Assembly (NCBI GenBank): GCA_964640155.1
Contig: CAZXEQ010000003.1
Coordinates: 314,189 to 346,188, forward strand
Reading direction: 5' to 3'
DNA from: an uncultured bacterium
GTDB taxonomy: Bacteria; Auribacterota; JACPWU01
Length of the DNA stretch: 32,000 bases
The notes below the pieces were generated by a model. It saw only the letters and a list, made by a program, of their open reading frames with translations, had not been told where the DNA came from and did not search any database. Both the position numbers and the translations under genes were made by a program. Below, one piece after another: positions 5,888-28,988 of this stretch. How positions within the stretch are numbered: the stretch's first letter is position 1; every line of letters begins with the position of its first letter.

Positions 5888-5891
5888 TTTT

Positions 5892-5897
5892 ACCTCC
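5892..5897 (-). promoter_or_regulatory. Shine-Dalgarno GGAGGT for the zinc-ribbon gene
   Basis: The reverse complement of 5888-5897 is GGAGGTAAAA, immediately before the ATG at 5887-5885. Confidence 0.55.
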
Positions 5898-5947
5898 GCA
5901 ATGTGGCGTATGTTCTATGCTAAATCATGAATTTATTTACAACTATA

Positions 5948-9227: not shown

Positions 9228-12200
9228 GTGGTAAATACAAATTTGATGAAAAAACTTATTACACTATTACTTTGTGTTTCCTTATTAGATATACAGGGTT
9301 TAACCCTGGGATATACAGAAACTCAAAATCCTTCGCAATCCACTGAGCTTAATTCGACTCTTTTATCATCCTGGTTTGAAATTACTTCTCAAAGCAAAAC
9401 TTTTTCATGGAGTAACCCTGGGATCATTCTCATTCGTGATTTACACGCAGATGGCGAAGCTCAGCTTAAAATTGCTAAAGGTCTGGAAGCGATGACCCGA
9501 CAAACTGGTAGTACCCTCGTTCTTGAAGAGGGTGCAGTGGGTAAAATTGACACAGGTTTTCTAGGAACGTTTCCAAATCAATCGATTCGTGAGGAAATTA
9601 CCAAAGAATATGTAAAGAGCGGCTGGGTAAGAGGGCCAGAGTTTTTATCGATTGCACGTTTTGGAGAGTTGGATTTGGAATTGAGAGGAGTTGAAGATCA
9701 GAATTTATATCAAGAGAATTTTGCCCAATATCGAGAGGTGATGAAACACAAAGAAGAGATTGAGACGGGGTGTATATTGCTTAAGAAAGAGCTTATCAAA
9801 GCAAAGAAGAAATTCTGCTCGGTTGAGTTTAGAAAGTTTGAGGAAAAAAGAGAACAGTTCCAAGATAATCAGATAGCATTTGATGAATATGTAAAATTTC
9901 TGCTTCATTATTCTTTTAGCCCTTTCCAACACCCACATCTTTCTCTTTTTAGTGATTTAATGAAAAAGAAAAGCCATATCAATGAAGTGAGTGCAGAAAA
10001 AGAGAAAAATCGATTGGTTGAAGAATTGAGCCAAAAACTTGATAAAGACTCTTTGGGTTCCTTTATTCGCGCCAGCCTTGAGTATCGCTTTGGCCGTATG
10101 AGCGCTCAAGAATTTAATCAGTATTTAAGTTGGCAAGCCGAGAAAATAGGTAAAAATATTAAAAATTATCCTGAGCTTTATAAATTGATTGAGTGGATTA
10201 AGATTCAGGGTGAAGTGGATGGGGTTAAATTATTAGAAGAAATTAAAAGTCTTGAAGAAGTAAATATCAATAAATTAGCTAAAACCACTCAAGAAAAAAA
10301 ATTGAAGGATTTAACCAGACAAATTCAAGCGATTCAAAGTTTTTTAAGTCTTGAGTTAAGCAGGCAAGATTGGGAGAAATATTTAAAGAATACAAAGGGG
10401 TATGATGCGTTAAAAATTTCTCAAGAGCTAGGTAGCATTCTTGGAGAAAAGCCTATTTTAGGCCTTGAGAAAATAAATGGAATTCTTGTTAAAGCTAGAA
10501 AGTTTTATGAGTTAGCAAGAGCAAGAGATCAGATTATTGCTCAAAACTCAATTCGTTCAATGAAGGAAGTTTCTCGTCAGAGACCTGCCCGAACAACCAT
10601 TCTTGTTGTTGGAGGTTTTCATGCAACAGGAGTTCAGGAAATTCTAAATGCTCAAGGAGTTAACTATATTGAGCTGACACCCAAAATGAATCATATACCT
10701 AATGCCAGTCTTTATTTGACACGCATGATGGATCCTCGTTTTAAAATTGGAACCATACCTCTTCCTTGTCTTTTTCAAGAAGTTGTTCAAGCTCTTGCCG
10801 TTACAGTCAGTCAAGATGCTCAGAAAAAAATAGGCATTTTATATATTAATGCTTTGAAAGGGCGCTTACTCTTAGAATTAAAAGGCGATACAGCTGGTGT
10901 TCAGAAAAGACTTTTAGAGGCTTTAGGTCTTTGGGAAAAACAAAGAGGCGAATTATCTGACGGCGATAAGAAAATTTTTAAAATTTTAGAAGAGGAAATC
11001 AAAAATCCATCATCTACAGAATCTGCAGCTTCAGATATTTCTAAGGATGAAATTAGAAGATGGATGGAGGGAAAAGAATACACGGAACTTCATGCCAATG
11101 TTTTAATCAAAATTCTCGAGACTTTTTATTCTGAGAGAAAAGATCTCATTGAATATGCGAAAGATCTTTATCAAAAGAAGTGGGGTAGGCATAAAGTGCG
11201 ACGCCAAATTTTTATTCATCAAGATGGGATGGCCATGGCTCCCGTCTTGACAGCTCTAAACAAAATGGAAGTATTTAAACTTTTTGAGGATGGTCGTTCA
11301 GTGAGTATGGGAGAAATCATTCGAACGACAAAAGGAAGTCCAGGTTATCTTCATGTCGCAATGCGCCTTTTTGTTTCTCAGGGCTGGATGACAAGAAAAG
11401 GTGAGGAGGGTACGGATAATCTGACCTATACCTTGACAGAGGACGGAACTTATATTTTGTCACTTCTGGATTATTATGGGCCTGTGGCTGAGTTTATTGA
11501 TCAAGCGGTTGGAATAGATGATTATTTGTTCGGGAAATCACGTGCCCCTCCTGCAGATGGACAAAAAAAATCTTATGCGCAGCTGATAGAACTCTCTAAA
11601 AATCAATGGAATTTGCCTCCCGAAACAGATTCTCGAAAGAAAATGCTTCGCGAACGTGTGATTCAACAGTTAAACGGAATGCTTTTAGGTCCCACCATGG
11701 TTGCTTTAGGAATGCGTGGCGTTTTTGATCAATTTAATCCAGAAACACATTCAGTCACAATAAATCAAATTCAAGGGAATGCGAAACATCTTAAAGAGGC
11801 TTTTACTCTTTTAGAACAACAAGGATGGTTAACTCGAAACGGAGATGTTTTCACGCTTACTCATGATGGACGATCGGCTGCAGTTTTAGCATCAGCTTAT
11901 GGTGTGACTACTTCTTATCTACCTCTTTTCTCAAAATTGAAAGAACTTTTAAAAGGTCAAAGTAGAGAAGCGCTTTTTCCTCGTGATAAAAATAACAATG
12001 AAACCCATGTCAATCGACCCATGAATGTTTGGGCAAGCGGAGGCGCACATATCGCCTATTTTAAAGAAGCTGATAAAATGATCATTGAAATTTTTAATCG
12101 CCCTCTTGAAGAACAGCCTCGTGGTATTGCAGATATGGGATGTGGGGATGGAGCTTTCCTAATTCACTTGCATGAAATTGTGATGAGGACCAAACGAGGA

Positions 12201-15200
12201 GAGAAGATAAAAGAAACTCTTACGAAAATCTTAGAATTAGAAAGAGAACCTGCTCTTATTAAAGATGGAGGGGCAAAACATCAAGAATATTTATTGGCAA
12301 AAGCAGAGTATGAAAAATATAAATTAGTTATTGTGGGTGCGGATTTTAATAAGGAGCCCAGAATAATTACTCAAGGGAATTTGGAAAAAGCTGGCATTAA
12401 AGATGCAAAAATTATTTTTGGCAATATTAATGATCCTAAGAAATATGCAGAAGATTTGAGGGCATTGGGACTTGATCCTAAAAGTTTGTTACATGTTAGA
12501 TCCATGCTTGATCATAATCGACCCTATGTAACTCCTAAAAATACAGATCATATTCGCGCGGATCGTAAAGCTGATTCGGGTTCTTATGTGAACGACGGGC
12601 AGGTTATTCCCAATAACCAGTTACAGCAAAATTTAGTAGAACATTTAGAGGGCTGGCAAGAACATTGCGTTGGAGATGCAGGGCTGCTTGTGATTGAGCT
12701 TCATACCATTCCTCCGGAATTGGCTGCGACAAAAATTGGAGATACGCTTGCTACGCCTTATGATGCACATCATGGATTTTCTGATCAGTATATTGCTGAA
12801 ATTCCCACTTTTGTAGGAGCGGCAACAGAGGCTGGTCTTGAACTTGTTGAACAGAAGGCCTTTCCAACCACAACTCCTGAAGCTGCAACAGTCAGTATTA
12901 ATTATTTTAGAGCGAGTGCAAAAAAGAAGGTTCAAGTTTCTTGGGCAAGATCGTTTGGTAAAGTCTATGCAGTTCATGATGGTCCTGATGGGATTTATCA
13001 AGCTTTAAGATCTGAAATTACAAAGAAAGATCCACAATTTAATTTTGATTTATTAGAGAAGGCGTATCGATTTGGTGCTGAAAAATATAGGGACATTCGA
13101 CATGATGGAAGACCCTACATTGTTCATCCACTTGAAATAGCTCTTTACTTGGTTCGTGTTCTTGGGATTGTGGATCAAGATGCCATTTTAGCTGCGATCT
13201 TGCATGATTTAGTTGAAGATGAAAATGTGCTTCTCAATGAAATCAAAGAAATGTTTGGTGAAAATGTTAGAGCGCTTGTAGACGATCTTTCAGAAGATTC
13301 TTCATATCTTGAAGAGCAAGATAAAGTTTATAAAGCTCAAAATGGTCAAGAGTTAACAGGGAAATTGGCCATGAAAATAGAACATATTGAGCGAGTCGAT
13401 AAAAAATCCGGGAAATTATGCATTATCATTAAAATTGTGAATCGTTTGCATAATCTTTTGAGTAATGAATATCCTGTACGCAAAGCTAATTACGGAATGA
13501 ATCTTTTGGAAATTCAAAGATGGAGAGTTTTCTTAGATCATCATGTTTCTGATATACCACCTCCTTTGATGGAAGATATTCGTTATTTCTTGGGAAGAAA
13601 TAAAAAATCTCCAGATCTGACGCCTGAGGGAGCAGAGATTACAGTAACACATGACGAGCGAAATGCGCCTTTGGGGAAAAGAATTAAAGACAGTGAAGTA
13701 ACGGAGCTCTCTATTGATGAGGATGGAAGTCTCAAAGCTGCTTTAGTGATTCATGACTCAAATAAGTCTGAAAGTGAAAGGATAAGAGACTCTCGTAAGT
13801 GGAAAGTCGAAGACGTAAAAAAAGCCGGGACAAAACTTCTTTCAGCAAGAAATAAGCTTATGCAAACTCTTGAAGCACGTTTAGCGAATCCTGAAAGCAG
13901 CTTAGCTAAAACTTACCAATATTTGATTGCAGCAGGAAAAATCGAAAACCAAGAGGCATTTAAAAATCTTTTGCTTGAAAAAGCTAAGCAAATGTCTCTT
14001 TTGGTTGTTGGGGATGAACAAGATTTGTTAAGTGCAGTCATTCATCAAGATGGACCTTATATGCATTGTCGTAGGGGTGTATCAGGCCGACCTCCAGCTC
14101 TATGGATGGGGTATATCACTTTAAAGAGAATGTCTGAAGAAATGTTAACAAGAGCTCTTTTAGATGAAGCTTTGCATGTTGCTTTCCCGGAAGAAGAACA
14201 TCGAGATAAAAAAGGAAACGGGACTTTATTACATGATCAAGAATTGTACGAACATTGTGATCAAATTTTAAGATTTGCAAATATTGATTATATTTATCAG
14301 AAAATGTATCAAGCGCAGCAGGGTATTATCGGGAATCTCGAGATTTTGAGAATGGATATAGATACAATTTCAGAAGAAGATATATTAGCTTTAAAGAAGA
14401 TTGCCGATGAACATCCTTCCGATAGAATTTCTTTAGATAGCAGAGAAGAAATAGAACGATGCATAGGAATTTCTAGAAGATTTTTTGATGAGGCAAGAAG
14501 AATTGTTCAAAAATTGCCTTCTTATTTAGAAGATGATGTTCAGGAAATAGCTGAGGAAATCAGAGATGCTATCAGAATTTCTTCTGAGGAGATGAATAAA
14601 AATCTTGATCTTGCTTATCGTCAATGGTTAGAACATCGATTTTTTGAAAATCCTGGAGAATCTCAACCTATTACACCCCCCGCTGCATTTTGCCAGTTTG
14701 ATGCTGCTCCCAATTCTCTTGATGCAATCATGACAGAGATTCGTAAGGCTTATGGGAAAAACCGATTTGATGAGGTTCTCAGGCTTGGGTCAAGTTTAGC
14801 AGATGCCATTCAAAAGGGACTTGCTATTCCTGATGATGTTCATGTGATGATTGGTAAGGGTTTCTTGGATAGGGCAAGAAGAATGAAAACTCAAGGTAAA
14901 ATAGAAAATGCTATTCGAGATTTTGATAGGGCCATAGAAAGTTTTGTAACGATGCGCGATAAAGGAGCGGTTAAGGTAGGGGAAGCTTCTGTGGAAAAAC
15001 CAGTGCTCATTGAAGAAGTAAGTAGAGAAATTGTTGTTTATGCAGAAGGTTATGTTGAAAAGGAAAAAGAAAATAGCAGAGAAATTCCTTTAGAAGTTCA
15101 TTTTGCATTGGGTCGCGCTTATTTATGGTCTGCTATATGTGAAAAATCCGAAGGCAATATTGCAAAGGCCATGCAGCACTGTGCTCGTGCAATGGATTTT

Positions 15201-21200: not shown

Positions 21201-24200
21201 GGGGCAAAGCGAAAAGACACTGCTTTGCAGGATAAGGCCAGGGAAATTCTTGAATCCATCAATTTACAAGAAGTTTTAAAGACAGATTCTGTCAATATTC
21301 ATCGAGTAGTTTCGGCGTTTAAAAATATATTGGGGTATGAGAGGGCTAAAGCCGTTCTAGATATGATTGATCTGGCGATCATTAAGAAAGACCAGAGATT
21401 AAGAGGTCTTTATCTTTTGGTGTTTAGTCGTTTAAATGCTGAGGATGCTTTTGTAGTAGAAGCTGATTCTTTTGAACGAGATTTTCCAGATCATGCGCCT
21501 CATTATCTAGGATTAACCTATGAAGCACGTGAAAATCAGGAAAAAAGTCTCGCTTACTATGATCGAGCTTTTCAAGAAGCCCAAATTCATGGTTGGAGTG
21601 AAAAATATCTTAGAGAACACAGCCTCTGGTTGCGACCCGCTGGGATGGCGAGTGTAGAATATAGAATTAGAAGGCTTCGAGGGCTTGTAACTGATAGCGA
21701 ATATCATTGGGTGGAATTGATTGATGTGCTCTCATCAAGTGGTCGCTATTTGGAAAGTATGAGACTTGCAAAAGAAAAAATGAGAAGTGTTTCACCAAAA
21801 AATCAAATAGAGCTTCAATGTCATATTGGAGCTTGCTATGAAAACATGGAACGAAGAGAAGAAGCTTTTACTGCTTATGAAGCTGCGCGACTAAAATCTA
21901 CTGCGAATGTTGAGACATGGGATAGAATCCAAGTTTTTTGTGTGAGCAGTTTTCTTGTAAGACATCCAAAAGCAGGTGAATGGATAAAACATTTTTATAA
22001 TGAAGCTATTAAAACAAGAAATACAGGGATTATAGATTCCTTTAAAAATTATTTTAGAAAACATGGTCATCCCCTCGATGTAAATGCTTCAGGAGATATT
22101 ACGATCAGGTTTTTAGCGCTTGAAAAAATAGTGAAAGAAGCATGTGATTTGGAAATCACTATTCAGATGCCCTTAAATATAGCGTGTTCCTCTGTGGTAG
22201 ATCGAGAAATTGGCAAAATCGTAATCCCTCATTTAAAAGAAAAGTTTCCAAATCTTGTGGGGTTTATAGGAGATGAAATTATTTCTGGTCCTCACTTTGA
22301 TTTGGAGGGTAAATCTCCGGATTTTCTTCTAGGGCTTGAAGAAAAATTATCTAAGAAAGAGACAAATATTGCCGATGCTATTGAAGCAGGGACTTCCATT
22401 ATAAGTTCTGGTTTAGTGAAAGATGTTAAAGCATTGGTGAATTCACTTTGGACAAGGGTTCAGGCAGGAGATGCTCAAGCAAAGATTTGGTTAGGGGCTT
22501 TGGCTCAAGTTGAGGGAGTAACTGGAGATTTTGGGGATATTAGTATTGAACTTGAAGATGGAAATAAAATAATACGATTCAAGAAAATGGAAGAAGATCT
22601 CCAGAGAGATCATGGAGTACATGTTGATTTGGTAGTGAGAGTTTCTGAGTTTAAGGATTATGACCCGAGAGCCGTTTTAGATGAAATTGAAGGAAGAATG
22701 AGTGCGGATATTGAGGCAAGATTAGAAAGCTCTTCAAATGTGACTCGAGCATTATTTGAGAAATGGAAAAGTGCTCTTGTTTCAGGTTCATTAAAAGATG
22801 CTGGGGTTTTAATCAGGCCACTTTGGAAAAGAGTGAAGGCGGCAGATGCTCAAGCCAGACAATGGCTAGCAGATCTCGTGGGGCTTGAACAAGGCAGAGG
22901 AGATTTTGGAGAAATAAGGATTGAGCTAGGCGCTAAAGGGAATGAGCTTTGTTTAAATCAAGTCGGAGCTGACTTGATTGAAGAAAAGCTTTTGAGAGAT
23001 GACTCAAGAGATGAAATGCTTGCAGGGCTTCAAAATGCGTTAACATTTGGACTGGTGTCGAATCCTGCAATTTTAATTAATTCTCTGTGGGCGAAGGTCG
23101 TGAGTGGGAACCCTCAGGCTGCGTTAGCGCTTGGAAGAGTTGTTGAGACTGTTGCGGATGTAGACGGTGAATATGGCACGTTGAGGATTGAGACACGTGA
23201 GGGTGGTGTTAAAGTGTTACATCGTCGGGATTTCGAAGATCAATTTGAACAGGCTTTTGGTGAGAGAATGCCTTTTGTTCTTACTCCTGCCGAATTGAAA
23301 GAATCTGGTTTGAAAGATGTGCGTGCTGAAATAACTGCCTATGTTCAGCGTAAACTTTTAGAAAAAAGTGACGGTGAGACGCGAACAAAAGTACTTTCAG
23401 GCTTAAAAACTTTTTTTGATTTAGGGTTAGTTTCTACAGAAACTTTAATTGAATCTTTTTGGACTGGCGCAGTCAGTGGGGATGCTCAAGCAAGAGAAAG
23501 TTTATGTGATGTGGCTCAAATGGATGGAGTTGTAGGACCATTTGGGAAGTTAAACATTCAAGCAAGAGATGATGGTAGGAAAACTTTTCGATTTATCGAA
23601 ATTGAGGAGAATTTTGAGTCAACTTTTTCATCAAAGAGCAATCTTTCGGTTTCAATAGAAGAATTTAAAAAAACAGGTTTTGATACAGTTGAGGAAAGAA
23701 TAGCGGGATGTGTTTTAGAAATATTCAAAACTGCCGGGCAAAAGGATAAAGATGTTATTGCTGGGATTGATCTTGCGTTAGAAGCGGGGTTGATTAGAAA
23801 TGCTGGTGCAATAATGCGCACTCTTTTAGTAGAAGTTAAAATGGGGAATGATCGAGCTAGAAAATGGTTATGCGATGTGGCAAGACTTGAGCGAGCTAAA
23901 GGAGATTTTGGAGAAATAAGTATCGAATCGGATACCCGAGGAAAAGTTTTACGTTTTAAGGAAATGCAAAGACTTTTTAGAAATGCATTTGAAGAAGGAA
24001 TATCATTTGTTGAACCTATTGATCAATTTGAAAAAGAAGGTTTGGCATTAATACAAAAGAGAATTGTAGGTTTTGTAGAAAAGAAAATGGCTCAAAGTGA
24101 TGAAATGCGAGGGAAAATGCTCAAAGGATTTGAAGCTGCAGTTGCTTCTGGTTTAGTAAGCGATGCGGGAATTTTAGTGAGATCTCTTTATGAAAGAGTG

Positions 24201-27200
24201 CTTAAAGGTGAAAGTGAAGGGAGAGTTTTTCTGACAGAACTTGCGGCTCGTGAAAAAGTTTTAGGTGATTTTGGTGATATTGCAATTGAAAAAGTGGATG
24301 AACAAATTGTGATACGTTTTCGGATGACATTGGGTGAATCTACAGAGTTTACTGCTTCTCCAGAAGAGTTTGGTCAATTGAACTTGCCGAAAGCTAAAGA
24401 AGCCATTACCCAAAGTTTTGAATCAGATTTAATGAACGAAGACAGGGGAGTTCGAGAGGCTGCGATAACTCGTTTTAAACAAACACCCATTTTTTCACTA
24501 TTAGCGGAAAATCTCGTAAGATCTATTTGGGGGAAAGTGCTGCAAGGAAATGCGAGCGCAAGGCGAGCTTTATGCGTTTTAGCAAGAGATGCTGGTGTCA
24601 GAGGAGATTTTGAGGTTATTGAAATTTTAGATTCTCCTGCTTTAGGTGTAAAATTACGATTAAAAGATATGGAGAGTAAATTTAATGAGATTGTTGGAAA
24701 ATCAGTTACTTTTATGATGGATGTTGTTGAGTTTGAAGGAACTGGTTTGTCTCGCATTCAAGCGCAGATTATTTCAGGACTTGAAAGGGGATTGTTATCC
24801 GATGATGAGCCAATTCGAGCAGCAGCTTTTGCTGGATTCAAGAAAGCTTTAGAATTTGGGCTTGTAACCGATGCAAGTATTTTGGCTAAACCTCTGTGGG
24901 AAAAGGCTGCAAAGGGCGATGCTTCGGCAAGAAACGATTTGTGTGATTTCATTGCAGCGGGCCATTTAAAAGGAAACTTTGAAGGGTTTAGTGTTGTAGA
25001 AGATGGGAGAGCAGTAAGGCTAAGTGCAGCAGAAAAAGAATTAGGAGAGGCATTTCAAGGAATTAATCTTACGATTTCAATCGAAGAATTTAGAGCTTCA
25101 GGTTTAGCTGGAATACAATCAAAAATAATTCAGTATGTCATCGAAAAATTGGAAAGTGTTGATGAAGCTGAGCAAGATAAAGGTATTGTTGCGCTTCAAA
25201 AAGCTTTACAGACACATATATTGCCTGATGCACGAGCTATCGTGAGTCAGCTTTGGAAAAAAGTCGAAGCAGAAAATGTGCAGGCCAGAACAGCTTTGGT
25301 CAAACTTCTTTTAAATGTTGAAGGAGATTTTGAAGAAGTTGGGATTGAAACTGTTGGAGAGAAAAAAGTTTTGCACTTGAAGGAAGAGGAGAGAAAGTAT
25401 CAGGAAATATTTGGGGAAAAAATAAATATACTTGTTCCTGTTTCCAGATTTTTAAGTATTGGTTTAGATTCGACTGCTCAATCAATCATCCAATATACTG
25501 AGACGCGTTTATCTGTTGCGGATGAAAATGCTCGTACACGGATATTTGCTAAATTTAAAAATGCTATAGATCAGGGTTTGATTAAGAATGCGAATGATCT
25601 GGTTGGTGCTCTTTTAGATAGAGTCATTAGTGGTAAAGAAGAAGATAAATGGGCTAGAGTTGCTTTAAGCAGATTCTTATCTCTTAATTGGGCTGAAACT
25701 GAGTTTGATGGAATTGTTATTGAAAAGAGATCAAAAGGTAAAGGAAGTGATGAAGAAAAAGTAATTCATTTTTTAAGGATTGAAAATGAATCAAAGAAAA
25801 ATTTTTCTTTAGGTAAAAAGGATATTCTTTCCATTACTTTAGTGGAGCTAGAAACACAAGGGAGTGAAGGAATTCTTAATAAAATAATGGGTTTTATTAA
25901 GAGTGAACGAAAATATCTTCTTGAGATTTTAGATGAAGTAAAGTTAAGAGAATTATTGCGTGAAGGATTAGAAAATAGAGATATGGAAGATCTGGTTGTA
26001 GACTTATCTTATTTTGCAGCAAAGAAATTAAGAGAAACAAGGATTACATATCTTCCTTTAAATTCTATTCGTGAATTATTGAAGGATCAAAAATGCGAGA
26101 GAAAAGATCTTACACAAGTTTTAGAAATGTTGCAGTCTTTGAGGCGCTTGGCTGGCGGAGGAAGTGTAAGTTTTAAAAAAGTAGAGGAAGAAACGCAAGA
26201 TGTATTAGTTATTACTCTTCCTGCTTCAGTTCCAAGAGAAACAATGAAGCAATATTTAGACAGAGAAGATGTAAAGGGCCGTTTAGATCCTGTCATCTTA
26301 GGTTATGCAAATGAATGTGAATCTAAGAAGGCGCCTATTTATAGAGTTATTTTAAGTGATGGTTCTCTAGTAGATAGTGGGATTGTGGATCGTGGAACTT
26401 TAAAAAGTAAACAGATTTTAAAACGACTTCCTCAGAGAGGATATGCAAGTTTGGAGAAAATAGAAGGAGAGAAGGGAGGTGTATTAGTATTTAATCTTTC
26501 AGATCTGATTTCAAAAGAAACTATAAAGCAATATTTTGAAGAACAAAGGGTAAAAAGTTATTTAAAATTTATTATTGAGAGATATGTGGATGAATATGGG
26601 TTTGAGAAAGCGCCTTCTTATCAAGTCCTTTTAAGTGATGGTTCTCAAATAGATGATGAGGGTGTTAAAGAAGAAATAGAAGTTATCATTAAAGCTATTA
26701 TTAATGAAAGAAAAAGGATGGCTGAGGAAGCTGCGGCTTCTAAAAATGGTGAAACAGCAATTGATGGTAATGGATTGAATGGTGGCGCTGGAACCAATGG
26801 TGCTAATGGCGCAAATGATGGTATTACTCATGTAGAAGCGGGGAGTGTTGGTGTAGAAGTGGTTATTGGAACTGAGACTGGAGCATCTGAAACAGAAACG
26901 GGTGATGGACGAGGATTTTCTAGTTTACAAAAAGAAATCTATAATAGACCTGTAAGAGAAGGGTTAAAGAGTGGGGGGTGGGTCGGAGCAACTTTTGATA
27001 GAGAGAAAGTCACGACTGTATCTCGGATTGCCAATGATTCTGGAGGGGAAGACTTTAATTCTACTCAAACTTTAAATGCTAATGATCAGAAAACGTTAAC
27101 TCAAGTTATTGAATCTTTATCTGAAGAAGACAGGGCTCATCTTCAAGGATTAGAAGAGTTAGGGGGCAAAGTCACGGTTGTTTTTATTGATGGGCTGGAT

Positions 27201-28988
27201 GAAGCAGTAAAGGCAGAACTTCGTGAAAAAGGGAAAACAGTTCCTTCTGATTGTTATGGAAGTCATTATGGTTTATCACGTCCACAAATTTATCTAGATA
27301 GAAATTTATTAAAAGATCCTATTCAACTGCGAATACATCTGCATCATGAGTTAGCCGAGCGTGAAGCTGTGATTCGTGCTCTTGTCTCACCAGGGTATCC
27401 CGATTGGCGTAAGAATCGAACAGATCCTAATGTTGTTAAAATTATTCACACAATGACCCATCAAAAACACAATGAACTTCTTCTCGAAGAGAGAAGAATG
27501 CCTTCGTCACCAGCGTATGGAAAAGAAAATGCTGAGGTGGAAGCTTTACTTCATCAGCTTGACCATTCAAAAAATATTTTTTGGATGTATCTTAAGAATG
27601 ATGCCAAAGCTCGCCAAATTATGAGAGAGAGGCTTTATAAGTTACTAATTCAGGGACATTTGCGTGAAAGGATTAAGTCCAGACTTTCTAGTCAAGGTTT
27701 GCAATCTATTACAGTGACAATGGGCGGAGCATCTTTATGGCGTTCAGAAAAGGATACGACTTTAGATGTAGATATATCAATTCTTACCGATGGCGATGTG
27801 AAGGATCAGGGAATATGGAGATCGGATGATTTTCTAGATATTGACTTTTCAATTTTAGGGCGTGAGGCAATTCGTCGTAAAACAGAAACAAGATTTTTAG
27901 GGCTTTTGGAGTTAACAAGCCTCACCATTATTGGCGATGCAGGATCTAGGGATTATTCTGTCGAAGACTTAGCTGAAGTGGCTGAACTTTTCATGAGAAA
28001 AGGGGACAGTGCATCTTCTCTTGGTGACACAGAAAAACAGGGCAAGAAATATTTGATGGCGTACGTACTTCTACATCATTTCTTGAGTGAAAAAGTGCGT
28101 CGAAAAGTTTCGGATTGGATTTTTGATGGGATACCATTTGAGACTTATTTCCTGAAATATTTTAAAGGTGAAATCAGTCATTTGCCATGGGGATTGGAAG
28201 TAAGTGATAGAGAAGATCGTTTCTCGGAGGTTTCTGGCATTTTATATAGAGAGCTCTCAATTTTGAGAACGAATGCTATTTTTTCTCAGCTGAGAGATAT
28301 TCTTAAGTCTGACGGGACGGAATTTATAGAAGCATTAGATAAAAAATTGGTAGATATTCTTAATCATGATTATGCTCATTTAGATGAGCGTACGAGAGAT
28401 CGTTTGATAAGTGGGGTTCTGAAAAAAATTTATGAATCGAAACATCCACTTGTAATCTCTCAAGAATTTGAACGGCTTCTCAGAAAAGAAGGTTTCTCTG
28501 AATTTGGAATTGCAGGTCTTGAAGCCTTGGCTGGAACGAAATTTTTTATACAAATAATGCATCAGGTTGGAGAAGGACGCGGATGGTATGAAGATAGTCA
28601 AATGCATAGGCAGTTTATAGAAATATATATGCGATCCCTGCTAAAGGCACAAGGTGTAGATATGCCATCTGGAAGTGCAAATAAATTGATTGCTTATGCT
28701 CTGGCGAAGTTAACAAATGATTCAGCTTCCTCATTGCCCAACGAATCTTTTGATGCATTTTTGAGAAGAAAAGGATTAGAATTTCTTTCGGATCCTTGTA
28801 CAACGTCAGATCAAAGATCTCAGAGGCTTCGCCAGCTTGCCGAACGTATTGCTGTTTTATGCCCAGATGCTGAAACACCTATGATCTCAAAATTGGTTCA
28901 AAGCGAATTAGCCCGTATGTTGCCCCCAGCTCGGGTTTCAAGTATTTCGAGGACTCCTCGAGAAGCCGCATTTGCTCAAGCGGCTTAA
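9228..28988 (+). CDS. Giant multidomain protein, 6,586 aa (signal peptide; methyltransferase, HD and nucleotidyltransferase modules; helical super-repeats; tandem modules)
   Basis: This is a single open frame of 19,761 nt in AT-rich DNA. The longest antisense ORF inside it is 127 aa. The likely true start is the ATG at 9246 (MKKLITLLLCVSLL...), and the GTG at 9228 is the longest-ORF start. The stop is TAA at 28986-28988. Confidence 0.9.
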   Translation: MVNTNLMKKLITLLLCVSLLDIQGLTLGYTETQNPSQSTELNSTLLSSWFEITSQSKTFSWSNPGIILIRDLHADGEAQLKIAKGLEAMTRQTGSTLVLEEGAVGKIDTGFLGTFPNQSIREEITKEYVKSGWVRGPEFLSIARFGELDLELRGVEDQNLYQENFAQYREVMKHKEEIETGCILLKKELIKAKKKFCSVEFRKFEEKREQFQDNQIAFDEYVKFLLHYSFSPFQHPHLSLFSDLMKKKSHINEVSAEKEKNRLVEELSQKLDKDSLGSFIRASLEYRFGRMSAQEFNQYLSWQAEKIGKNIKNYPELYKLIEWIKIQGEVDGVKLLEEIKSLEEVNINKLAKTTQEKKLKDLTRQIQAIQSFLSLELSRQDWEKYLKNTKGYDALKISQELGSILGEKPILGLEKINGILVKARKFYELARARDQIIAQNSIRSMKEVSRQRPARTTILVVGGFHATGVQEILNAQGVNYIELTPKMNHIPNASLYLTRMMDPRFKIGTIPLPCLFQEVVQALAVTVSQDAQKKIGILYINALKGRLLLELKGDTAGVQKRLLEALGLWEKQRGELSDGDKKIFKILEEEIKNPSSTESAASDISKDEIRRWMEGKEYTELHANVLIKILETFYSERKDLIEYAKDLYQKKWGRHKVRRQIFIHQDGMAMAPVLTALNKMEVFKLFEDGRSVSMGEIIRTTKGSPGYLHVAMRLFVSQGWMTRKGEEGTDNLTYTLTEDGTYILSLLDYYGPVAEFIDQAVGIDDYLFGKSRAPPADGQKKSYAQLIELSKNQWNLPPETDSRKKMLRERVIQQLNGMLLGPTMVALGMRGVFDQFNPETHSVTINQIQGNAKHLKEAFTLLEQQGWLTRNGDVFTLTHDGRSAAVLASAYGVTTSYLPLFSKLKELLKGQSREALFPRDKNNNETHVNRPMNVWASGGAHIAYFKEADKMIIEIFNRPLEEQPRGIADMGCGDGAFLIHLHEIVMRTKRGEKIKETLTKILELEREPALIKDGGAKHQEYLLAKAEYEKYKLVIVGADFNKEPRIITQGNLEKAGIKDAKIIFGNINDPKKYAEDLRALGLDPKSLLHVRSMLDHNRPYVTPKNTDHIRADRKADSGSYVNDGQVIPNNQLQQNLVEHLEGWQEHCVGDAGLLVIELHTIPPELAATKIGDTLATPYDAHHGFSDQYIAEIPTFVGAATEAGLELVEQKAFPTTTPEAATVSINYFRASAKKKVQVSWARSFGKVYAVHDGPDGIYQALRSEITKKDPQFNFDLLEKAYRFGAEKYRDIRHDGRPYIVHPLEIALYLVRVLGIVDQDAILAAILHDLVEDENVLLNEIKEMFGENVRALVDDLSEDSSYLEEQDKVYKAQNGQELTGKLAMKIEHIERVDKKSGKLCIIIKIVNRLHNLLSNEYPVRKANYGMNLLEIQRWRVFLDHHVSDIPPPLMEDIRYFLGRNKKSPDLTPEGAEITVTHDERNAPLGKRIKDSEVTELSIDEDGSLKAALVIHDSNKSESERIRDSRKWKVEDVKKAGTKLLSARNKLMQTLEARLANPESSLAKTYQYLIAAGKIENQEAFKNLLLEKAKQMSLLVVGDEQDLLSAVIHQDGPYMHCRRGVSGRPPALWMGYITLKRMSEEMLTRALLDEALHVAFPEEEHRDKKGNGTLLHDQELYEHCDQILRFANIDYIYQKMYQAQQGIIGNLEILRMDIDTISEEDILALKKIADEHPSDRISLDSREEIERCIGISRRFFDEARRIVQKLPSYLEDDVQEIAEEIRDAIRISSEEMNKNLDLAYRQWLEHRFFENPGESQPITPPAAFCQFDAAPNSLDAIMTEIRKAYGKNRFDEVLRLGSSLADAIQKGLAIPDDVHVMIGKGFLDRARRMKTQGKIENAIRDFDRAIESFVTMRDKGAVKVGEASVEKPVLIEEVSREIVVYAEGYVEKEKENSREIPLEVHFALGRAYLWSAICEKSEGNIAKAMQHCARAMDFLTHYAAATQTPVVRGAALLGARKAPTQGFNDNAMLYLSQAMIENGIIQMFAGSYDAARQIFQQTLTSNTRLGEKKAELQKFVQICKDFISVDKEIVQFSGSKDADASSLLGKLADLESRTRNNEDLPCAAAQIFLYRWMIYWKLKDASQAETNFQKALESRDDRFLIAFRSLINAMSKAKVLWNRDFLQAIAAKKGQPFLRRFLREIVKDYYRSLDLKEFREAVMEVLGFKSFREYVEWLLQEEQERAVVGVAPKKADVGSPINHPGLVAPLIEAIQVLPSDDERKVLAARPDISATPVLQAALRGEIRPIADVIRISLELRDELEKIQKIDVEVGDQIEIRQKCIDIAKKFKDVWLFTESDLVSAFWDKFFTVFSGEMNPDIEEALKIGLAWIERHSHKSHEHQRSYMYYQCGQIYYMTNLRAEATACFQKVIEQSSSAELKIRSYFSLGSLLYLEVRDLEDGAEKTSKLKQAKDLVARTLTQEALKIGAIDASVGHMMLSYICAELCEYKEAYEHLMNAKTYPGNFLYAKRKFLKSFGERFESLTSGEDLKVYKDFLVFACKQENQELRDQLIRFRSVKNRAWVRAVMEVLSNKGIALKQREAAIAFLRGMDLETESAGLIGILREQAGFALKQQPHFLWEGLELLRTCPTPEAKAFIQEILDNGNYAKAAGYRVEKINTIAKARDQYESLPDVFEVSDERAKTSKYCLTRKEWSQMLLDYWPSDSEWDEYVLERESSKLSDKFERLSVHEIRKQIEKAREEGLAYDAIIGQLEALNVSRINVNEELKNSQIRLARAQKLMDEGNFSEAAVMLYEILTGRSRVRVVGLEMIIAHERNGEDKDVFVVVLKAWELLERANYFMETRPGDSMPTLEYAKALIEKWKDKDEELRTKDPVDIMEVVRALYFLERPQDALRVLELIPPVFFDNYGYFALWRLRLMFKTDDDRFLGEYERVKEMTDPKAKNLLGKFCRERGLFSESMEAFQDAYTGADFKLTNTNETRPGAFIDAVQAAQVPIREVFEDAFLSCFDMMLGSSLRNKGADFVRVHLHENAFADMILMSAEMLYEAGCYLEALNLLNQRLNQIKEKKHLIEYHQCRGKILAALNRDDEALKAYEEAVKIDASKFEHWRDLIGIYYEKKDRSNTIRCIKRAMSVGASAETSYCVEDILKRVLGGEDDSKLWLADLLSDHSIASPVEGIVFGGEGEERNVQFTALEAQVEKVFGAKINFVFSENDIKTKNISDEIFNKIKTATKTKSPYLEEVLGEGMFNAMVQEAMRADCLGEILNLLFSEAASNITVSKGKGVAKAGRRNETLKVDGPIINAKLINMGVQVIQRLKIQGDTSLLEKIAKGPWVAETPEFQKALKGEVVRVSTAALTPDAQGPPSPGKDPDATASEVSGDEDAAILAALKECIQAYSSNQTLLAFQKALELAPRFKNLSNNPTKNPKDLETFAGEAAVLIDILSKYGDIRFDASLEEGLKAVLDWTVRAGPAFKILRVLAVHYRGKLYLKAQQFAKSRAFFATALALDPSEVKNVLPDIAEAYFQEMRMSSDVNQRRKLAQEAIPVIENDSSCNSLIALGWFYAEVGSYDKVFGVIKKLNAQRAVLAKGGKDQEKVDVDLIFRSMMARCFETLREKDIETQVRFIQVLISNQLESAFAETLERGKEQGPLWTQALIIVLNQEMSSTEKDRLIQLLKGADFRGAEEQWLEILRQKADLSDAKKKEAFFKFAIPVSARCFSLEVRDFLQTLKPGFSSSKDTTLAQAIDQAVASIEGNQAIETKISEGTSYLTLKEWQASLRRELPLAGEWDEWMLEVETAKFLEEFPWMKARKIRDELVKARQSKLDIEAVRFNLKTLEEEIQRQFFKDKNLSQLESIEQEIHKLVENGQWDEAFGYITLAREGNAKKGFPGYYQLWRNASGEEKDKYLKKLQEIRDFAEHWFFLWRFESDLKEAAKGQKGSAIDIAYERMVKPYIDTPSKLALKAPVDLGEIATCFYVVGAKRKDTALQDKAREILESINLQEVLKTDSVNIHRVVSAFKNILGYERAKAVLDMIDLAIIKKDQRLRGLYLLVFSRLNAEDAFVVEADSFERDFPDHAPHYLGLTYEARENQEKSLAYYDRAFQEAQIHGWSEKYLREHSLWLRPAGMASVEYRIRRLRGLVTDSEYHWVELIDVLSSSGRYLESMRLAKEKMRSVSPKNQIELQCHIGACYENMERREEAFTAYEAARLKSTANVETWDRIQVFCVSSFLVRHPKAGEWIKHFYNEAIKTRNTGIIDSFKNYFRKHGHPLDVNASGDITIRFLALEKIVKEACDLEITIQMPLNIACSSVVDREIGKIVIPHLKEKFPNLVGFIGDEIISGPHFDLEGKSPDFLLGLEEKLSKKETNIADAIEAGTSIISSGLVKDVKALVNSLWTRVQAGDAQAKIWLGALAQVEGVTGDFGDISIELEDGNKIIRFKKMEEDLQRDHGVHVDLVVRVSEFKDYDPRAVLDEIEGRMSADIEARLESSSNVTRALFEKWKSALVSGSLKDAGVLIRPLWKRVKAADAQARQWLADLVGLEQGRGDFGEIRIELGAKGNELCLNQVGADLIEEKLLRDDSRDEMLAGLQNALTFGLVSNPAILINSLWAKVVSGNPQAALALGRVVETVADVDGEYGTLRIETREGGVKVLHRRDFEDQFEQAFGERMPFVLTPAELKESGLKDVRAEITAYVQRKLLEKSDGETRTKVLSGLKTFFDLGLVSTETLIESFWTGAVSGDAQARESLCDVAQMDGVVGPFGKLNIQARDDGRKTFRFIEIEENFESTFSSKSNLSVSIEEFKKTGFDTVEERIAGCVLEIFKTAGQKDKDVIAGIDLALEAGLIRNAGAIMRTLLVEVKMGNDRARKWLCDVARLERAKGDFGEISIESDTRGKVLRFKEMQRLFRNAFEEGISFVEPIDQFEKEGLALIQKRIVGFVEKKMAQSDEMRGKMLKGFEAAVASGLVSDAGILVRSLYERVLKGESEGRVFLTELAAREKVLGDFGDIAIEKVDEQIVIRFRMTLGESTEFTASPEEFGQLNLPKAKEAITQSFESDLMNEDRGVREAAITRFKQTPIFSLLAENLVRSIWGKVLQGNASARRALCVLARDAGVRGDFEVIEILDSPALGVKLRLKDMESKFNEIVGKSVTFMMDVVEFEGTGLSRIQAQIISGLERGLLSDDEPIRAAAFAGFKKALEFGLVTDASILAKPLWEKAAKGDASARNDLCDFIAAGHLKGNFEGFSVVEDGRAVRLSAAEKELGEAFQGINLTISIEEFRASGLAGIQSKIIQYVIEKLESVDEAEQDKGIVALQKALQTHILPDARAIVSQLWKKVEAENVQARTALVKLLLNVEGDFEEVGIETVGEKKVLHLKEEERKYQEIFGEKINILVPVSRFLSIGLDSTAQSIIQYTETRLSVADENARTRIFAKFKNAIDQGLIKNANDLVGALLDRVISGKEEDKWARVALSRFLSLNWAETEFDGIVIEKRSKGKGSDEEKVIHFLRIENESKKNFSLGKKDILSITLVELETQGSEGILNKIMGFIKSERKYLLEILDEVKLRELLREGLENRDMEDLVVDLSYFAAKKLRETRITYLPLNSIRELLKDQKCERKDLTQVLEMLQSLRRLAGGGSVSFKKVEEETQDVLVITLPASVPRETMKQYLDREDVKGRLDPVILGYANECESKKAPIYRVILSDGSLVDSGIVDRGTLKSKQILKRLPQRGYASLEKIEGEKGGVLVFNLSDLISKETIKQYFEEQRVKSYLKFIIERYVDEYGFEKAPSYQVLLSDGSQIDDEGVKEEIEVIIKAIINERKRMAEEAAASKNGETAIDGNGLNGGAGTNGANGANDGITHVEAGSVGVEVVIGTETGASETETGDGRGFSSLQKEIYNRPVREGLKSGGWVGATFDREKVTTVSRIANDSGGEDFNSTQTLNANDQKTLTQVIESLSEEDRAHLQGLEELGGKVTVVFIDGLDEAVKAELREKGKTVPSDCYGSHYGLSRPQIYLDRNLLKDPIQLRIHLHHELAEREAVIRALVSPGYPDWRKNRTDPNVVKIIHTMTHQKHNELLLEERRMPSSPAYGKENAEVEALLHQLDHSKNIFWMYLKNDAKARQIMRERLYKLLIQGHLRERIKSRLSSQGLQSITVTMGGASLWRSEKDTTLDVDISILTDGDVKDQGIWRSDDFLDIDFSILGREAIRRKTETRFLGLLELTSLTIIGDAGSRDYSVEDLAEVAELFMRKGDSASSLGDTEKQGKKYLMAYVLLHHFLSEKVRRKVSDWIFDGIPFETYFLKYFKGEISHLPWGLEVSDREDRFSEVSGILYRELSILRTNAIFSQLRDILKSDGTEFIEALDKKLVDILNHDYAHLDERTRDRLISGVLKKIYESKHPLVISQEFERLLRKEGFSEFGIAGLEALAGTKFFIQIMHQVGEGRGWYEDSQMHRQFIEIYMRSLLKAQGVDMPSGSANKLIAYALAKLTNDSASSLPNESFDAFLRRKGLEFLSDPCTTSDQRSQRLRQLAERIAVLCPDAETPMISKLVQSELARMLPPARVSSISRTPREAAFAQAA
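9246..9311 (+). other. N-terminal signal peptide or signal anchor of the giant protein
   Basis: MKKLITLLLCVSLLDIQGLTLG has a basic n-region, a hydrophobic core and a small-residue c-region. LLLC is not a canonical lipobox. Confidence 0.6.
9415..10640 (+). other. Possible Tiki/TraB/ChaN-superfamily-like domain with a long helical insert
   Basis: IILIRDLHADGEAQLKIAKGLEAM...TLVLEEGA (9421-9540) resembles the N-lobe. ARARDQIIAQNSI plus TILVVGGFHATGVQEILNAQG (10515-10660) resembles the R(D/E)xxM... and VGxxH blocks of that superfamily. This is a by-eye match only. Confidence 0.3.
11208..12915 (+). other. Two winged-helix-like modules followed by a class I SAM-dependent methyltransferase domain
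   Basis: WH-like 1: MAPVLTALNKMEVFKLFEDGRSVSMGEIIRTTKGSPGYLHVAMRLFVSQGWMTRKG. WH-like 2: GPTMVALGMRGVFDQF...NAKHLKEAFTLLEQQGWLTRNG. MTase motif I is GIADMGCGDGAFL (12126-12164), with VIVGADFN, IIFGNINDP and LLHVRSMLDHN following. Confidence 0.65.
13044..13475 (+). other. RelA/SpoT-type HD domain ((p)ppGpp-hydrolase / Mesh1-like)
   Basis: LLEKAYRFGAEKYRDIRHDGRPYIVHPLEIALYLVRVLGIVDQDAILAAILHDLVEDE...MFGENVRALVDDLSE...IIIKIVNRLHNL aligns block for block with the SpoT N-terminal hydrolase domain (HP...HDxxED...DRxHN). The H-D codons are at 13203-13208. Confidence 0.8.
16088..18960 (+). repeat. Protein-level super-repeat, copy A (about 1,080 aa, TPR-like helical)
   Basis: Ordered anchors are shared with copy B. 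TPVLQAALRGEIRPI matches TPEFQKALKGEVVRV. LTRKEWSQML..SEWDEYVLERE matches LTLKEWQASL..GEWDEWMLEVE. GNFSEAAVMLYEIL matches GQWDEAFGYITLA. YLEALNLL...EALKAYEEA...FEHWRDL matches YLESMRLA...EAFTAYEAA...VETWDRI. NVQFTALEAQVEKVFGAKINFVF matches ITIRFLALEKIVKEACDLEITIQ. Confidence 0.75.
19275..22260 (+). repeat. Protein-level super-repeat, copy B
   Basis: The same anchors as copy A occur at in-frame offsets of 3186, 3240 and 3273 nt (1062, 1080 and 1091 aa). The nucleotide sequences have diverged. Confidence 0.75.
22426..25940 (+). repeat. Ten tandem copies of a roughly 120-aa module of unrecognised family
   Basis: Signature: (L/F/I)(W/L/Y)xxVxxG(D/N)xQAxxWLxxLA...GDFGxIxIE...hxhxhxEF...G, ending in a GL(V/I)xxAxx helix. 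The first signature residue falls at 22446, 22821, 23085, 23457, 23823, 24186, 24525, 24894, 25251 and 25611. The spacings are 125, 88, 124, 122, 121, 113, 123, 119 and 120 aa. Confidence 0.8.
26140..26660 (+). repeat. Two copies of a roughly 93-aa module
   Basis: GGSVSFKKVEEETQDVLVITLPASVPRETMKQYLDREDVKGRL...KKAPIYRVILSDGSLVD matches YASLEKIEGEKGGVLVFNLSDLISKETIKQYFEEQRVKSYL...EKAPSYQVLLSDGSQID. An identical 18-nt run TTTTAAGTGATGGTTCTC occurs at 26350-26367 and 26629-26646. Confidence 0.8.
26731..26912 (+). repeat. Gly/Asn/Ala/Thr/Glu-rich low-complexity linker
   Basis: AAASKNGETAIDGNGLNGGAGTNGANGANDG...GTETGASETETGDGRG, with reiterated AATGGTG-like DNA units. Confidence 0.7.
27660..27860 (+). 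other. Pol-beta-superfamily nucleotidyltransferase motif
   Basis: A helix then strand gives ITVTMGGASLWRSEKDTTLDVDISIL (G-G-x-S at 27723-27734, D-x-D at 27765-27773). This fits hG[GS]x9-13Dh[DE]h. A third acidic strand, FLDIDFSIL (27837-27845), follows. Confidence 0.5.

Follow-up and report, generated by a model that had tools for sequence, protein, structure and literature searches.

A giant protein with a predicted signal peptide from an Auribacterota-like genome belongs to a very large family sharing a hydrolase-like head and a short C-terminal tail

We analyzed a stretch of 32,000 nucleotides (nt) from an uncultured bacterium of the Auribacterota lineage (assembly GCA_964640155.1, contig CAZXEQ010000003.1, positions 314,189 to 346,188 of the forward strand; hereafter the window), which carries a single gene for a protein of about 6.6 thousand amino acids (aa), termed here the giant. 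On the strength of its conserved head, we assign this protein to a very large family, unannotated in databases, whose members are predicted to combine a signal peptide, a head domain of ~470 aa, a hypervariable body and a C-terminal tail of ~25 aa. We tentatively posit, with a probability of roughly 45%, that the giant would be a Sec-exported modular scaffold or effector acting outside its producer's cytoplasm, with the head and tail serving as handling parts and the body as lineage-specific cargo. The giants of uncultivated small-celled bacteria, a recognized puzzle, have so far been treated as mostly unrelated, sequence-unique oddities; the giant described here is one of a very large family united solely by a hydrolase-like head and a short tail, and its interest stems mainly from this family-level finding and less from its own domain list.

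The giant is encoded by a real, intact single gene, as had been proposed in the original prediction, an annotation of the window made from the sequence alone. Its coordinates for the mechanical open reading frame (ORF), 9228..28988 on the forward strand with 6,586 aa from a GTG, were reproduced exactly, as was the longest antisense ORF within it (24374..24757, 127 aa). Throughout, residues are numbered with the GTG at 9228 as residue 1. The remaining five frames contain 316-658 stops over 9228-28988, and the probability of 6,586 codons without a stop is ~1e-229 under the ORF's own base composition. The GC content at codon positions 1/2/3 is ~0.52/0.35/0.26, and because it is uniform in every 2-kb block, the ORF looks coding over its whole length in one frame. 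There are no DNA repeats longer than 75 nt at 71% identity within the gene, which makes a repeat-collapse mis-assembly unlikely. Translation of the ORF from the ATG at 9246 yields exactly a public protein of 6,580 aa (P0015) encoded on a 357,497-bp NCBI contig, and this ATG, codon 7 of the GTG ORF, is most likely the true start. The species-representative genome collection yielded a single relative, an orthologue on a 5.6-kb contig of a Candidatus Auribacterota metagenome-assembled genome (MAG; L001), which keeps the MKKLI... start and not the codons upstream of it, and shows 78% amino-acid identity to the first 1,106 query residues. Over 1,154 aligned codons, the two genes are 81% identical, with nonsynonymous and synonymous divergences (dN, dS) of 0.11 and 0.63; at a dN/dS of 0.18, at least the N-terminal sixth of the giant is under purifying selection. 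The gene upstream of this orthologue is an orthologous amidase (80% identity), in synteny with the giant's own amidase neighbor. The window probably derives from a related member of the Auribacterota. That the source is a metagenome-type assembly speaks for an assembly chimera or a non-functional long ORF; we reject such an artefact as exceedingly improbable given the chance probability, the uniform codon-position GC, the lack of long repeats, the purifying selection relative to an independent MAG, the identical protein on the NCBI contig and the family plan described below, with the head at the N-terminus and the tail at the C-terminus. The gene and its family-defining parts are as follows:

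9246..28988, forward strand: the giant gene as publicly called, with an ATG start and 6,580 aa plus stop
9246..9299, forward strand: predicted Sec-type signal peptide MKKLITLLLCVSLLDIQG, recognized by inspection and hydropathy and kept in the orthologue L001
9375..10787, forward strand: family-defining head, aa 50-520, delineated by an alignment of family heads (A1), an AlphaFold2 (AF2) model and profile matches
28896..28985, forward strand: C-terminal tail ...LPPARVSSISRTPREAAFAQAA-COOH, which fits the family ending [S/A][A/L/V]

A word-indexed search with aa 7-1750 recovered 14 large proteins (1,440-3,008 aa) bearing Elusimicrobiota and Omnitrophica names, which match the giant only at aa ~62-500 with ~25% identity. 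The head profile A1, searched with HMMER against 1.84 billion cluster representatives, matches 10,091 of them at E<=1e-3 and 7,151 at E<=1e-30; the top match is the giant itself (as P0015; E 2e-149, aa 45-513), with all the near-invariant head residues present. Among the best 150 of the 10,091, the head always lies at aa ~50-530, and the proteins reach 7,832 aa with a median of ~2,500. Most of the best-scoring members are 1-8 thousand aa long and largely Pfam-dark, and the family bodies as a whole are hypervariable, mostly Pfam-dark and range from about 1 to over 10 thousand aa. Between head and tail, they have almost nothing in common: 8 of the 10 scanned members are wholly Pfam-dark, with occasional members displaying methyltransferase, sigma70_r4, PEP-utilising, cNMP-binding, FHA or VWA domains. 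Neither the head nor the architecture has a model in Pfam, NCBIfam, PADLOC or PHROGs. The earlier suggestion that this is not a described family thus stands to the extent that these databases lack it; it is, however, no singleton, with at least 10,091 representatives, and the general kind, a giant multi-enzyme/TPR protein with a signal peptide or transmembrane helices, is already known from Omnitrophota. The head-and-tail family, the architecture of the giant and a 120-aa module in its body (see below) appear to be undescribed in the sources searched.

In two related loci, large genes stand next to family members. The member P0007 is followed by a tandem gene for a 10,237-aa protein whose N-terminus is a head domain (E 2e-114; L012 8488-16304), and a 3,468-aa gene ending in ...KAVKDILSAA, a family tail, precedes the member P0008 (L004 1-5203).

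Signal peptides were judged here by inspection and hydropathy, and the counts for signal peptides and tails cover 132 family members of at least 1,000 aa. The original prediction of a signal peptide in the giant agrees with our inspection: MKKLITLLLCVSLLDIQG lies directly before the head, as is typical of the family, and combines an n-region containing KK, a hydrophobic core of 11 residues and, at positions -3 to -1, I-Q-G. It falls in the only strongly hydrophobic N-terminal segment of the giant (aa 9-29); the other hydropathy peak, at aa 1297-1315, belongs to the soluble HD domain (see below). Across the family, 121 of the 132 members carry a strongly hydrophobic segment at the N-terminus, commonly with an AxA-like site behind it, and 73 have no further hydrophobic segment. 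We infer that the giant is exported by Sec, because it combines this signal peptide with family-wide AxA sites and the lack of a transmembrane (TM) segment for re-entry. Of the earlier proposal that the protein is secreted or tethered to the surface, the export part is consistent with the AxA-type signal peptides found across the family; the further idea of delivery to another cell is conjectural, and no secretion system was found either within the window or at five related loci, whose neighbors are otherwise housekeeping genes with no recurring secretion system.

These observations bear on an alternative, in which the hydrophobic N-terminus would be an uncleaved anchor and the bulk of the chain would lie in the cytoplasm as a membrane-tethered scaffold organizing chemistry dependent on S-adenosylmethionine (SAM) and guanosine penta- or tetraphosphate ((p)ppGpp). 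It would explain the methyltransferase and HD modules of the giant (see below), which need cytoplasmic metabolites, and the sigma70_r4, PEP-utilising and cNMP-binding domains of other family members, and TM-only giants of Omnitrophota have been interpreted in the same way in a 2026 preprint (10.64898/2026.06.07.730766). Nevertheless, the KK n-region and hydrophobic core predict an N-in/C-out orientation that would place the downstream chain outside, AxA-type cleavage sites are common across the family, and many members have no second TM segment to return the chain to the cytoplasm. We accordingly consider a cytoplasmic tether unlikely, if deserving of serious attention.

The head has near-invariant residues in D71, H73, Q79, E101-G102, R433-D434, G462-G463-x-H465 and P485, and those invariant in the alignment A1 are D71, H73, Q79, E101, G154, R433, G462, G463, H465 and P485. 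D, H, Q, E, R-D and GG-x-H are retained in no fewer than 147 of 154 heads, and this conservation speaks for a metal-binding or catalytic site. Its AF2 model (predicted local distance difference test score, pLDDT, 88.4; predicted template-modelling score, pTM, 0.79) depicts a small alpha/beta core with ~300 aa of helices inserted into it. By profile-profile comparison with hhalign, the head matches pCF10 PrgY alone, annotated as a TraB/GumN family protein, with a probability of 65.8%, and an alignment of five sequences (PrgY with four Enterococcus homologues) with a probability of 75.8% (E 2.3e-5, 137 columns). This alignment places the R-D and G-G-F-H of the head onto the E-R-D and G-x-A-H of PrgY; the I-Q-D-A-H...E-G of the head is colinear with the V-G-T-A-H...L-E of PrgY, a correspondence that is not significant by itself. 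Of the TraB motifs, the head has E101, the R-D pair and the second motif (G-G-F-H), all in alignment. The few globular matches in a Foldseek search with the head model are EreC, ChaN, HopBA1 and 3B55, all weak (E 0.7-3.8), which belong to the erythromycin-esterase/ChaN/Tiki group; the spacing from His to Glu in EreB and EreC is 28 residues, the same as between H73 and E101. No NCBIfam model matches the giant's head, and a profile search of PDB with the head yielded nothing beyond noise (MotY). Accordingly, the possible Tiki/TraB/ChaN-like domain noted earlier at this position has moderate support from hhalign and weak support from Foldseek, and we predict that the head is probably a divergent TraB/PrgY/Tiki-type metal-dependent hydrolase domain of the Ere/ChaN clan. 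Like the TraB/PrgY/GumN/Tiki proteins (PF01963; ChaN/erythromycin-esterase clan), it displays x-x-x-H...E followed colinearly by R-D...G-x-x-H, here in an N-terminal domain; it differs from them in its first motif (I-Q-D-A-H against their G-T-x-H), in the interruption of its core by the helical insertion and in its fusion to kilo-residue bodies.

Tiki proteins are metalloproteases, and the resemblance of the head to TraB/PrgY/Tiki proteins, together with its hydrolase-like set of invariant residues, raises the alternative that the giant is a self-processed secreted polyprotein, in which the head would act as a peptidase that cuts the chain or trims its tail to release the methyltransferase, HD and scaffold pieces. 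Low-complexity linkers in the body (e.g., aa 5840-5897) would suit such cleavage, and a processing role has been proposed for the N-terminal C39/S8 peptidases of Omnitrophota giants (West-Roberts et al., 10.1101/2023.11.21.568195). This is countered by the lack of a cleavage-site motif recurring between the modules and of a linker common to the family bodies, and by the fact that peptidase activity among TraB-type domains is proven for Tiki only; we regard self-processing as rather unlikely.

The second family-wide element is the tail of ~25 residues: 103 of the 132 members end in [SAGT][ALVIM]-COOH, with sub-types such as ...QAVGAAA, ...RRKVMWSV and ...AYKAAxQALRSL, and the most informative positions are -1 (A/L/V), -2 (S/A), -5 (V/I/A), -7 (R/K/Q) and -21 (P). 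The giant's tail, ...REAAFAQAA, fits the family at -1 and -2 and has F at -5 and A at -7; scored with a tail matrix against the protein's own windows, its last 8 aa rank within the top 0.5% and its last 30 aa within the top 2.3%. In 66 of 100 cases, with 25 expected, the tail type follows the head phylogeny. Members of this family of giant proteins end in a conserved peptide that looks uncleaved, includes an amphipathic stretch and closes on small residues, which invites comparison with the type I secretion system (T1SS): the tail would be the secretion signal of a giant adhesin or RTX-like protein, and the conserved N-terminal head could, by analogy, act as a retention plug like the LapA-type module. 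Nevertheless, RTX GGxGxD repeats and Ig (immunoglobulin), cadherin or other adhesin domains are absent, a Sec signal peptide is atypical of T1SS substrates, and no ABC, MFP or TolC genes lie near the six loci studied; the RTX adhesin reading was rejected on these grounds, and type I secretion in general appears very improbable to us.

We also entertain a more specific and distinctly speculative notion, which we hold to be quite improbable, that head and tail form a matched pair: the TraB/Tiki-type head, exported first, would recognize, dock or cleave the tail, exported last, in a polymorphic effector or scaffold system of ultra-small, possibly epibiotic Omnitrophota, Elusimicrobiota and Auribacterota. 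If true, such pairing would serve as a completeness check, a maturation step or a means of head-to-tail assembly for Sec-exported giants, and the family, with its more than 10,000 members, would constitute an unrecognized system displaying cytoplasm-type enzymes to partner cells or delivering them into these cells.

Between its head and tail, the body of the giant displays the following features:

11199..11957, forward strand: two winged-helix modules, AprA_N (aa 658-722; Pfam E 1.7e-27) and WH_AprA (aa 816-910; Pfam E 4.8e-23)
11970..12941, forward strand: AprA-type class I SAM methyltransferase (Methyltransf_36; Pfam E 8.6e-81)
13047..13463, forward strand: Rel/SpoT/Mesh1-type HD domain, aa ~1274-1412, matched by Pfam HD_4, NCBIfam spoT_relA and PDB 8ACU
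14061..14201, forward strand: short conserved module HCRRGV...LLDEALHV, aa 1612-1658, shared with the family member P0121 (its aa 762-808; E 7e-6)
14865..15683, forward strand: TPR-containing helical region, aa ~1880-2152 (Pfam TPR_1, TPR_2 and TPR_8; E 2e-6 to 3e-5)
16227..18611, forward strand: super-repeat copy A, aa 2334-3128, helical, by local alignment to copy B
18621..18974, forward strand: solo module of ~120 aa, aa 3132-3249, by a hidden Markov model (HMM) that includes this copy itself and by BLASTP
19482..21938, forward strand: super-repeat copy B, aa 3419-4237, by alignment to copy A, with a TPR at aa ~3493-3523
22356..25910, forward strand: ten tandem alpha/beta modules of ~120 aa, aa 4377-5561, by self-similarity and HMM, with copy 2 truncated to 80 aa
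26133..26654, forward strand: a 2 x 93-aa repeat, aa 5636-5716 and 5729-5809 (43% identity, E 4e-15)
26745..26918, forward strand: Gly/Asn/Thr/Glu-rich low-complexity linker, aa ~5840-5897, from the sequence
27615..27932, forward strand: candidate minimal pol-beta nucleotidyltransferase (NTase) motif MGGASLWRSEKDTTLDVDI at aa 6165, followed by FLDIDF, from a single regular-expression match

One enzymatic part of the body comprises the winged-helix modules, themselves an internal duplication (aa 640-772 are similar to aa 786-913), and the methyltransferase with its SAM motif DMGCGDG. The scores for PF23526, PF23589 and PF23525 (95.9, 82 and 271.5 bits) stand against cut-offs of 27, and the closest solved relative is the AprA MT1 methyltransferase (PDB 6B39, E 4.7e-67), aligned through both the winged-helix and the catalytic parts, in full agreement with the earlier call of two winged-helix modules and a SAM methyltransferase. 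The giant shares with this component of the apratoxin loading module the winged-helix/winged-helix/class I methyltransferase order over ~400 residues and SAM motif I; it differs in lacking a pseudo-GNAT, an ACP or any polyketide synthase (PKS) context and in housing the module in a signal-peptide protein. The kinship with a PKS loading-module MT1 is what would suggest a natural-product megasynthase. No KS, AT, ACP, GNAT, C, A or TE domain emerged from the whole-protein Pfam and NCBIfam scans, a loading-module context (GNAT, ACP, KS) is found neither in the giant nor in the flanking genes, and the latter are of the housekeeping type, such that the domain scans effectively refute a PKS or nonribosomal peptide synthetase (NRPS) megasynthase, to which we give next to no credence.

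The HD domain is detected by Pfam HD_4 (E 6e-11; 42.8 bits against a cut-off of 27.2), NCBIfam spoT_relA (E 9e-18) and a PHROGs phosphohydrolase profile (E 1e-12), and it matches the structure of Rel (PDB 8ACU, E 3e-14) as well as those of SpoT and Mesh1, which bears out its earlier description as a SpoT-type HD domain. Its PYIVHP and LHDLVED motifs are intact and align with those of Rel and Mesh1. Like Mesh1 (3NR1/5VXA) and Rel (8ACU), it is of the HD_4 type with aligned His, His-Asp and Glu-Asp motifs; unlike them, it has Asn in place of the last metal-binding Asp, lacks synthetase, TGS and ACT domains and is predicted to be extracytoplasmic. It was also the only match in the PADLOC and PHROGs scans, and readings of the giant as a defense-system protein or a prophage gene were rejected. 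More broadly, no signatures of RTX, Ig, cadherin or other adhesin, PKS, NRPS, phage or defense-system proteins were found in the whole protein by Pfam, NCBIfam, motif, PADLOC and PHROGs searches, and the absence of Ig, cadherin, RTX, PKS and NRPS signatures asserted earlier is thereby corroborated by the Pfam/NCBIfam scans and the motif search.

Of the giant's body, only the module at aa 1612-1658 (HC[RA]RGV...W[ML]G...LL[DE]E[AG]LH) recurs in another family member (P0121). It had been called a degenerate zincin; it contains no HExxH and matches no Pfam model, and since HExxH and HxxEH are absent from all 6,586 aa and no peptidase HMM matches, neither of the two zincin-like segments proposed earlier is supported. 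The pol-beta NTase proposed earlier is suggestive only: its motif (hG[GS]x9-13Dh[DE]h) does occur, with one match at aa 6165 against 0.077 expected per shuffled protein, whereas the region has no Pfam match at E<=10, no PDB-sequence match at E<=10 and no plasmid tblastn match. Pfam searches at E<=10 on seven body segments likewise returned nothing for the NTase, zincin, repeat and 2 x 93-aa regions.

As to the mostly helical character suggested earlier, both of the segments modeled with AF2 (the head and the 120-aa unit) are helix-rich. The TPR-like scaffold recognized earlier is borne out by a few significant matches (aa ~1880-2150, 3085-3114 and ~3493-3523), of which the second lies in super-repeat copy A (TPR_2 E 1.7e-7). 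Copies A and B of the super-repeat share 191 identities over 733 columns (26%; z ~40 against shuffles), so that the super-repeat proposed in the original prediction holds, as 2 x ~800 aa. A ~120-aa module follows each super-repeat, with one copy after A and ten after B (eleven in total); the region of the solo module (aa 3160-3269) matches aa 5462-5581 by BLASTP (E 1.4e-5). This upholds the ten tandem 120-aa modules reported earlier, one of them truncated, and adds the solo copy at aa 3132-3249; the 2 x 93-aa module, at 43% identity, and the Gly/Asn linker at aa ~5840-5897 were also recovered. An AF2 model built from the eleven-copy alignment predicts the 120-aa unit with pLDDT 91.9 and pTM 0.82, in the order helix-helix-helix-beta hairpin-helix-beta-helix-helix. 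A Foldseek search against PDB found no solved relative (best E 2.7, TM-score <=0.29), and the module was not found in 153 other family members or in the protein encoded by the downstream gene (ORF2; see below). A confidently predicted structure without a solved relative makes this unit a specific lead. No relatives turned up when metagenomes were scanned with the last 697 aa or with aa 1240-2330.

Taken with the family-wide features, these modules lead to our preferred reading of the giant as an exported scaffold or effector. The giant chain would be exported by Sec and would work outside the producer's cytoplasm. Because both the head and the tail are under family-wide selection, they probably handle the giant chain, and as family-wide parts they would act in its maturation, anchoring, turnover or assembly. 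The body would be a lineage-specific cargo of helical scaffolds and repeat modules, on which a methyltransferase and an alarmone-hydrolase-like domain would be displayed. Since SAM and (p)ppGpp belong to the cytoplasm, we propose that the enzyme modules would act in or on a partner or prey cell or else serve as ligand binders; this appears to be the most coherent reading of the cargo and agrees with the idea, voiced in the original prediction, of a protein that acts on another cell. The qualifier "nucleotide-modifying" attached to that idea did not fare as well, as it rests only on the HD domain with its one altered metal ligand.

Several points weigh against this reading. Signal-peptide cleavage and export are themselves predicted from sequence features, no secretion or delivery machinery was found next to the gene, here or in the five related loci, and the SAM- and alarmone-dependent modules have no obvious periplasmic substrates. 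The TraB relationship of the head is moderate: none of 14 heads matches any Pfam model, PF01963 included; E. coli YbaP alone gives no alignment with the head; a Foldseek search of the head model against PDB returned no match at E<=1e-3, with coiled-coil noise from the insertion dominating; and the first motif reads Q/R-D-A/L-H (D-x-H) and not G-x-x-H, with the His kept and the Gly not. The fourth metal ligand of the HD domain has changed from D to N (VNRLHN against ADRLHN; window 13440-13463, aa 1405-1412), and by this substitution the module may be weakened, inactive or repurposed. At the other end, the giant's tail is only a modest match to the family, the orthologue L001 does not cover it, and the tracking of head phylogeny by tail type may be simple common descent. 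Finally, the C-terminal third has no detectable homologues in word-indexed searches with aa 4301-6586 and 5890-6586, in an index whose results never included the giant or exceeded 3,008 aa in length; as this index missed the giant itself and the longer family members, it is weak evidence for orphan status.

Our reading invites comparison with two kinds of giant proteins. Those of Omnitrophota are described as mostly carrying TM helices, a signal peptide or both, as including multi-enzyme types, with methyltransferase and HD domains among their content, and as containing TPR/HEAT scaffolds (10.1101/2023.11.21.568195; 10.64898/2026.06.07.730766). Their N-terminal regions generally lack identifiable domains, except for C39/S8 peptidases that possibly process the giants (10.1101/2023.11.21.568195); neither preprint mentions TraB, Tiki, a shared head or a C-terminal tail (10.1101/2023.11.21.568195; 10.64898/2026.06.07.730766). 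In common with the Omnitrophota giants (West-Roberts et al. 2023; Nielsen & Lui 2026), the protein studied here is a very long single-ORF product of an uncultivated small-celled bacterium, a setting in which many such proteins are Pfam-dark, and has internal repeats at the protein level without tandems at the DNA level; moreover, members of its family bear Omnitrophota names, and one tandem paralogue reaches 10,237 aa. The differences are that the Omnitrophota giants have at least 10-30 thousand aa, many TM helices, SecA-DEAD, C39 and dockerin content and type II secretion system or pilZ neighbors, whereas the giant here has 6.6 thousand aa, a signal peptide only, an Auribacterota-like genome and housekeeping neighbors. 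With this length, a single hydrophobic segment and none of the corresponding domains, it falls outside the Archaeovorin, dockerin and SecA-DEAD giant types. Polymorphic or multi-effector toxins, such as MARTX, resemble the family by analogy only, in their conserved terminal handling modules around variable cargo and in tandem paralogues; by contrast, no trafficking domain, immunity gene, cysteine-protease processing domain or secretion genes were found here, and the cargo is mostly uncharacterized. Should the SAM- and alarmone-dependent modules of these predicted-exported proteins act in another cell, they would represent a new effector class. The invariant head residues and the tail peptide offer a mutable handle on the export, maturation and turnover of kilo-residue proteins, and the head profile provides a search key with which to catalog thousands of hypervariable cargo bodies.

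The giant is flanked by ordinary chromosomal genes, namely those for adenylosuccinate lyase, Ham1, RNase PH, an aminotransferase, a racemase and Amidase_3, and is followed by a second large gene that shows similarity to the segment just after the head:

29096..32000, forward strand: ORF2, which encodes at least 968 aa before the window ends; another large protein, whose N-terminus looks like a signal peptide
10755..11048, forward strand: post-head segment of the giant, aa 510-607, matched to ORF2 aa 95-191 by BLASTP

The N-terminus of ORF2, MKKYFCKFITILLSLFLFF, resembles a signal peptide, and the protein has no Pfam match and no head domain. Its match to the post-head segment of the giant has 35% identity (E 9e-10), and it contains an internal repeat of its own (aa 330-530 against aa 845-968). 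The gap of 107 nt between the stop of the giant and ORF2 has no terminator-like site, and so the two genes may be co-transcribed. Elsewhere in the window, a 456-aa ORF (2432-3802, reverse strand) with no Pfam match at E<=0.01 lies among the housekeeping genes; an apparent synteny with the locus of the family member P0001, involving a Zn-ribbon gene and a 456-aa gene, was not borne out. G strongly outnumbers C on the giant's coding strand, with a GC skew of 0.11-0.41 that peaks at 22000-27000, and the cumulative GC skew climbs monotonically over nearly the whole 32-kb window.

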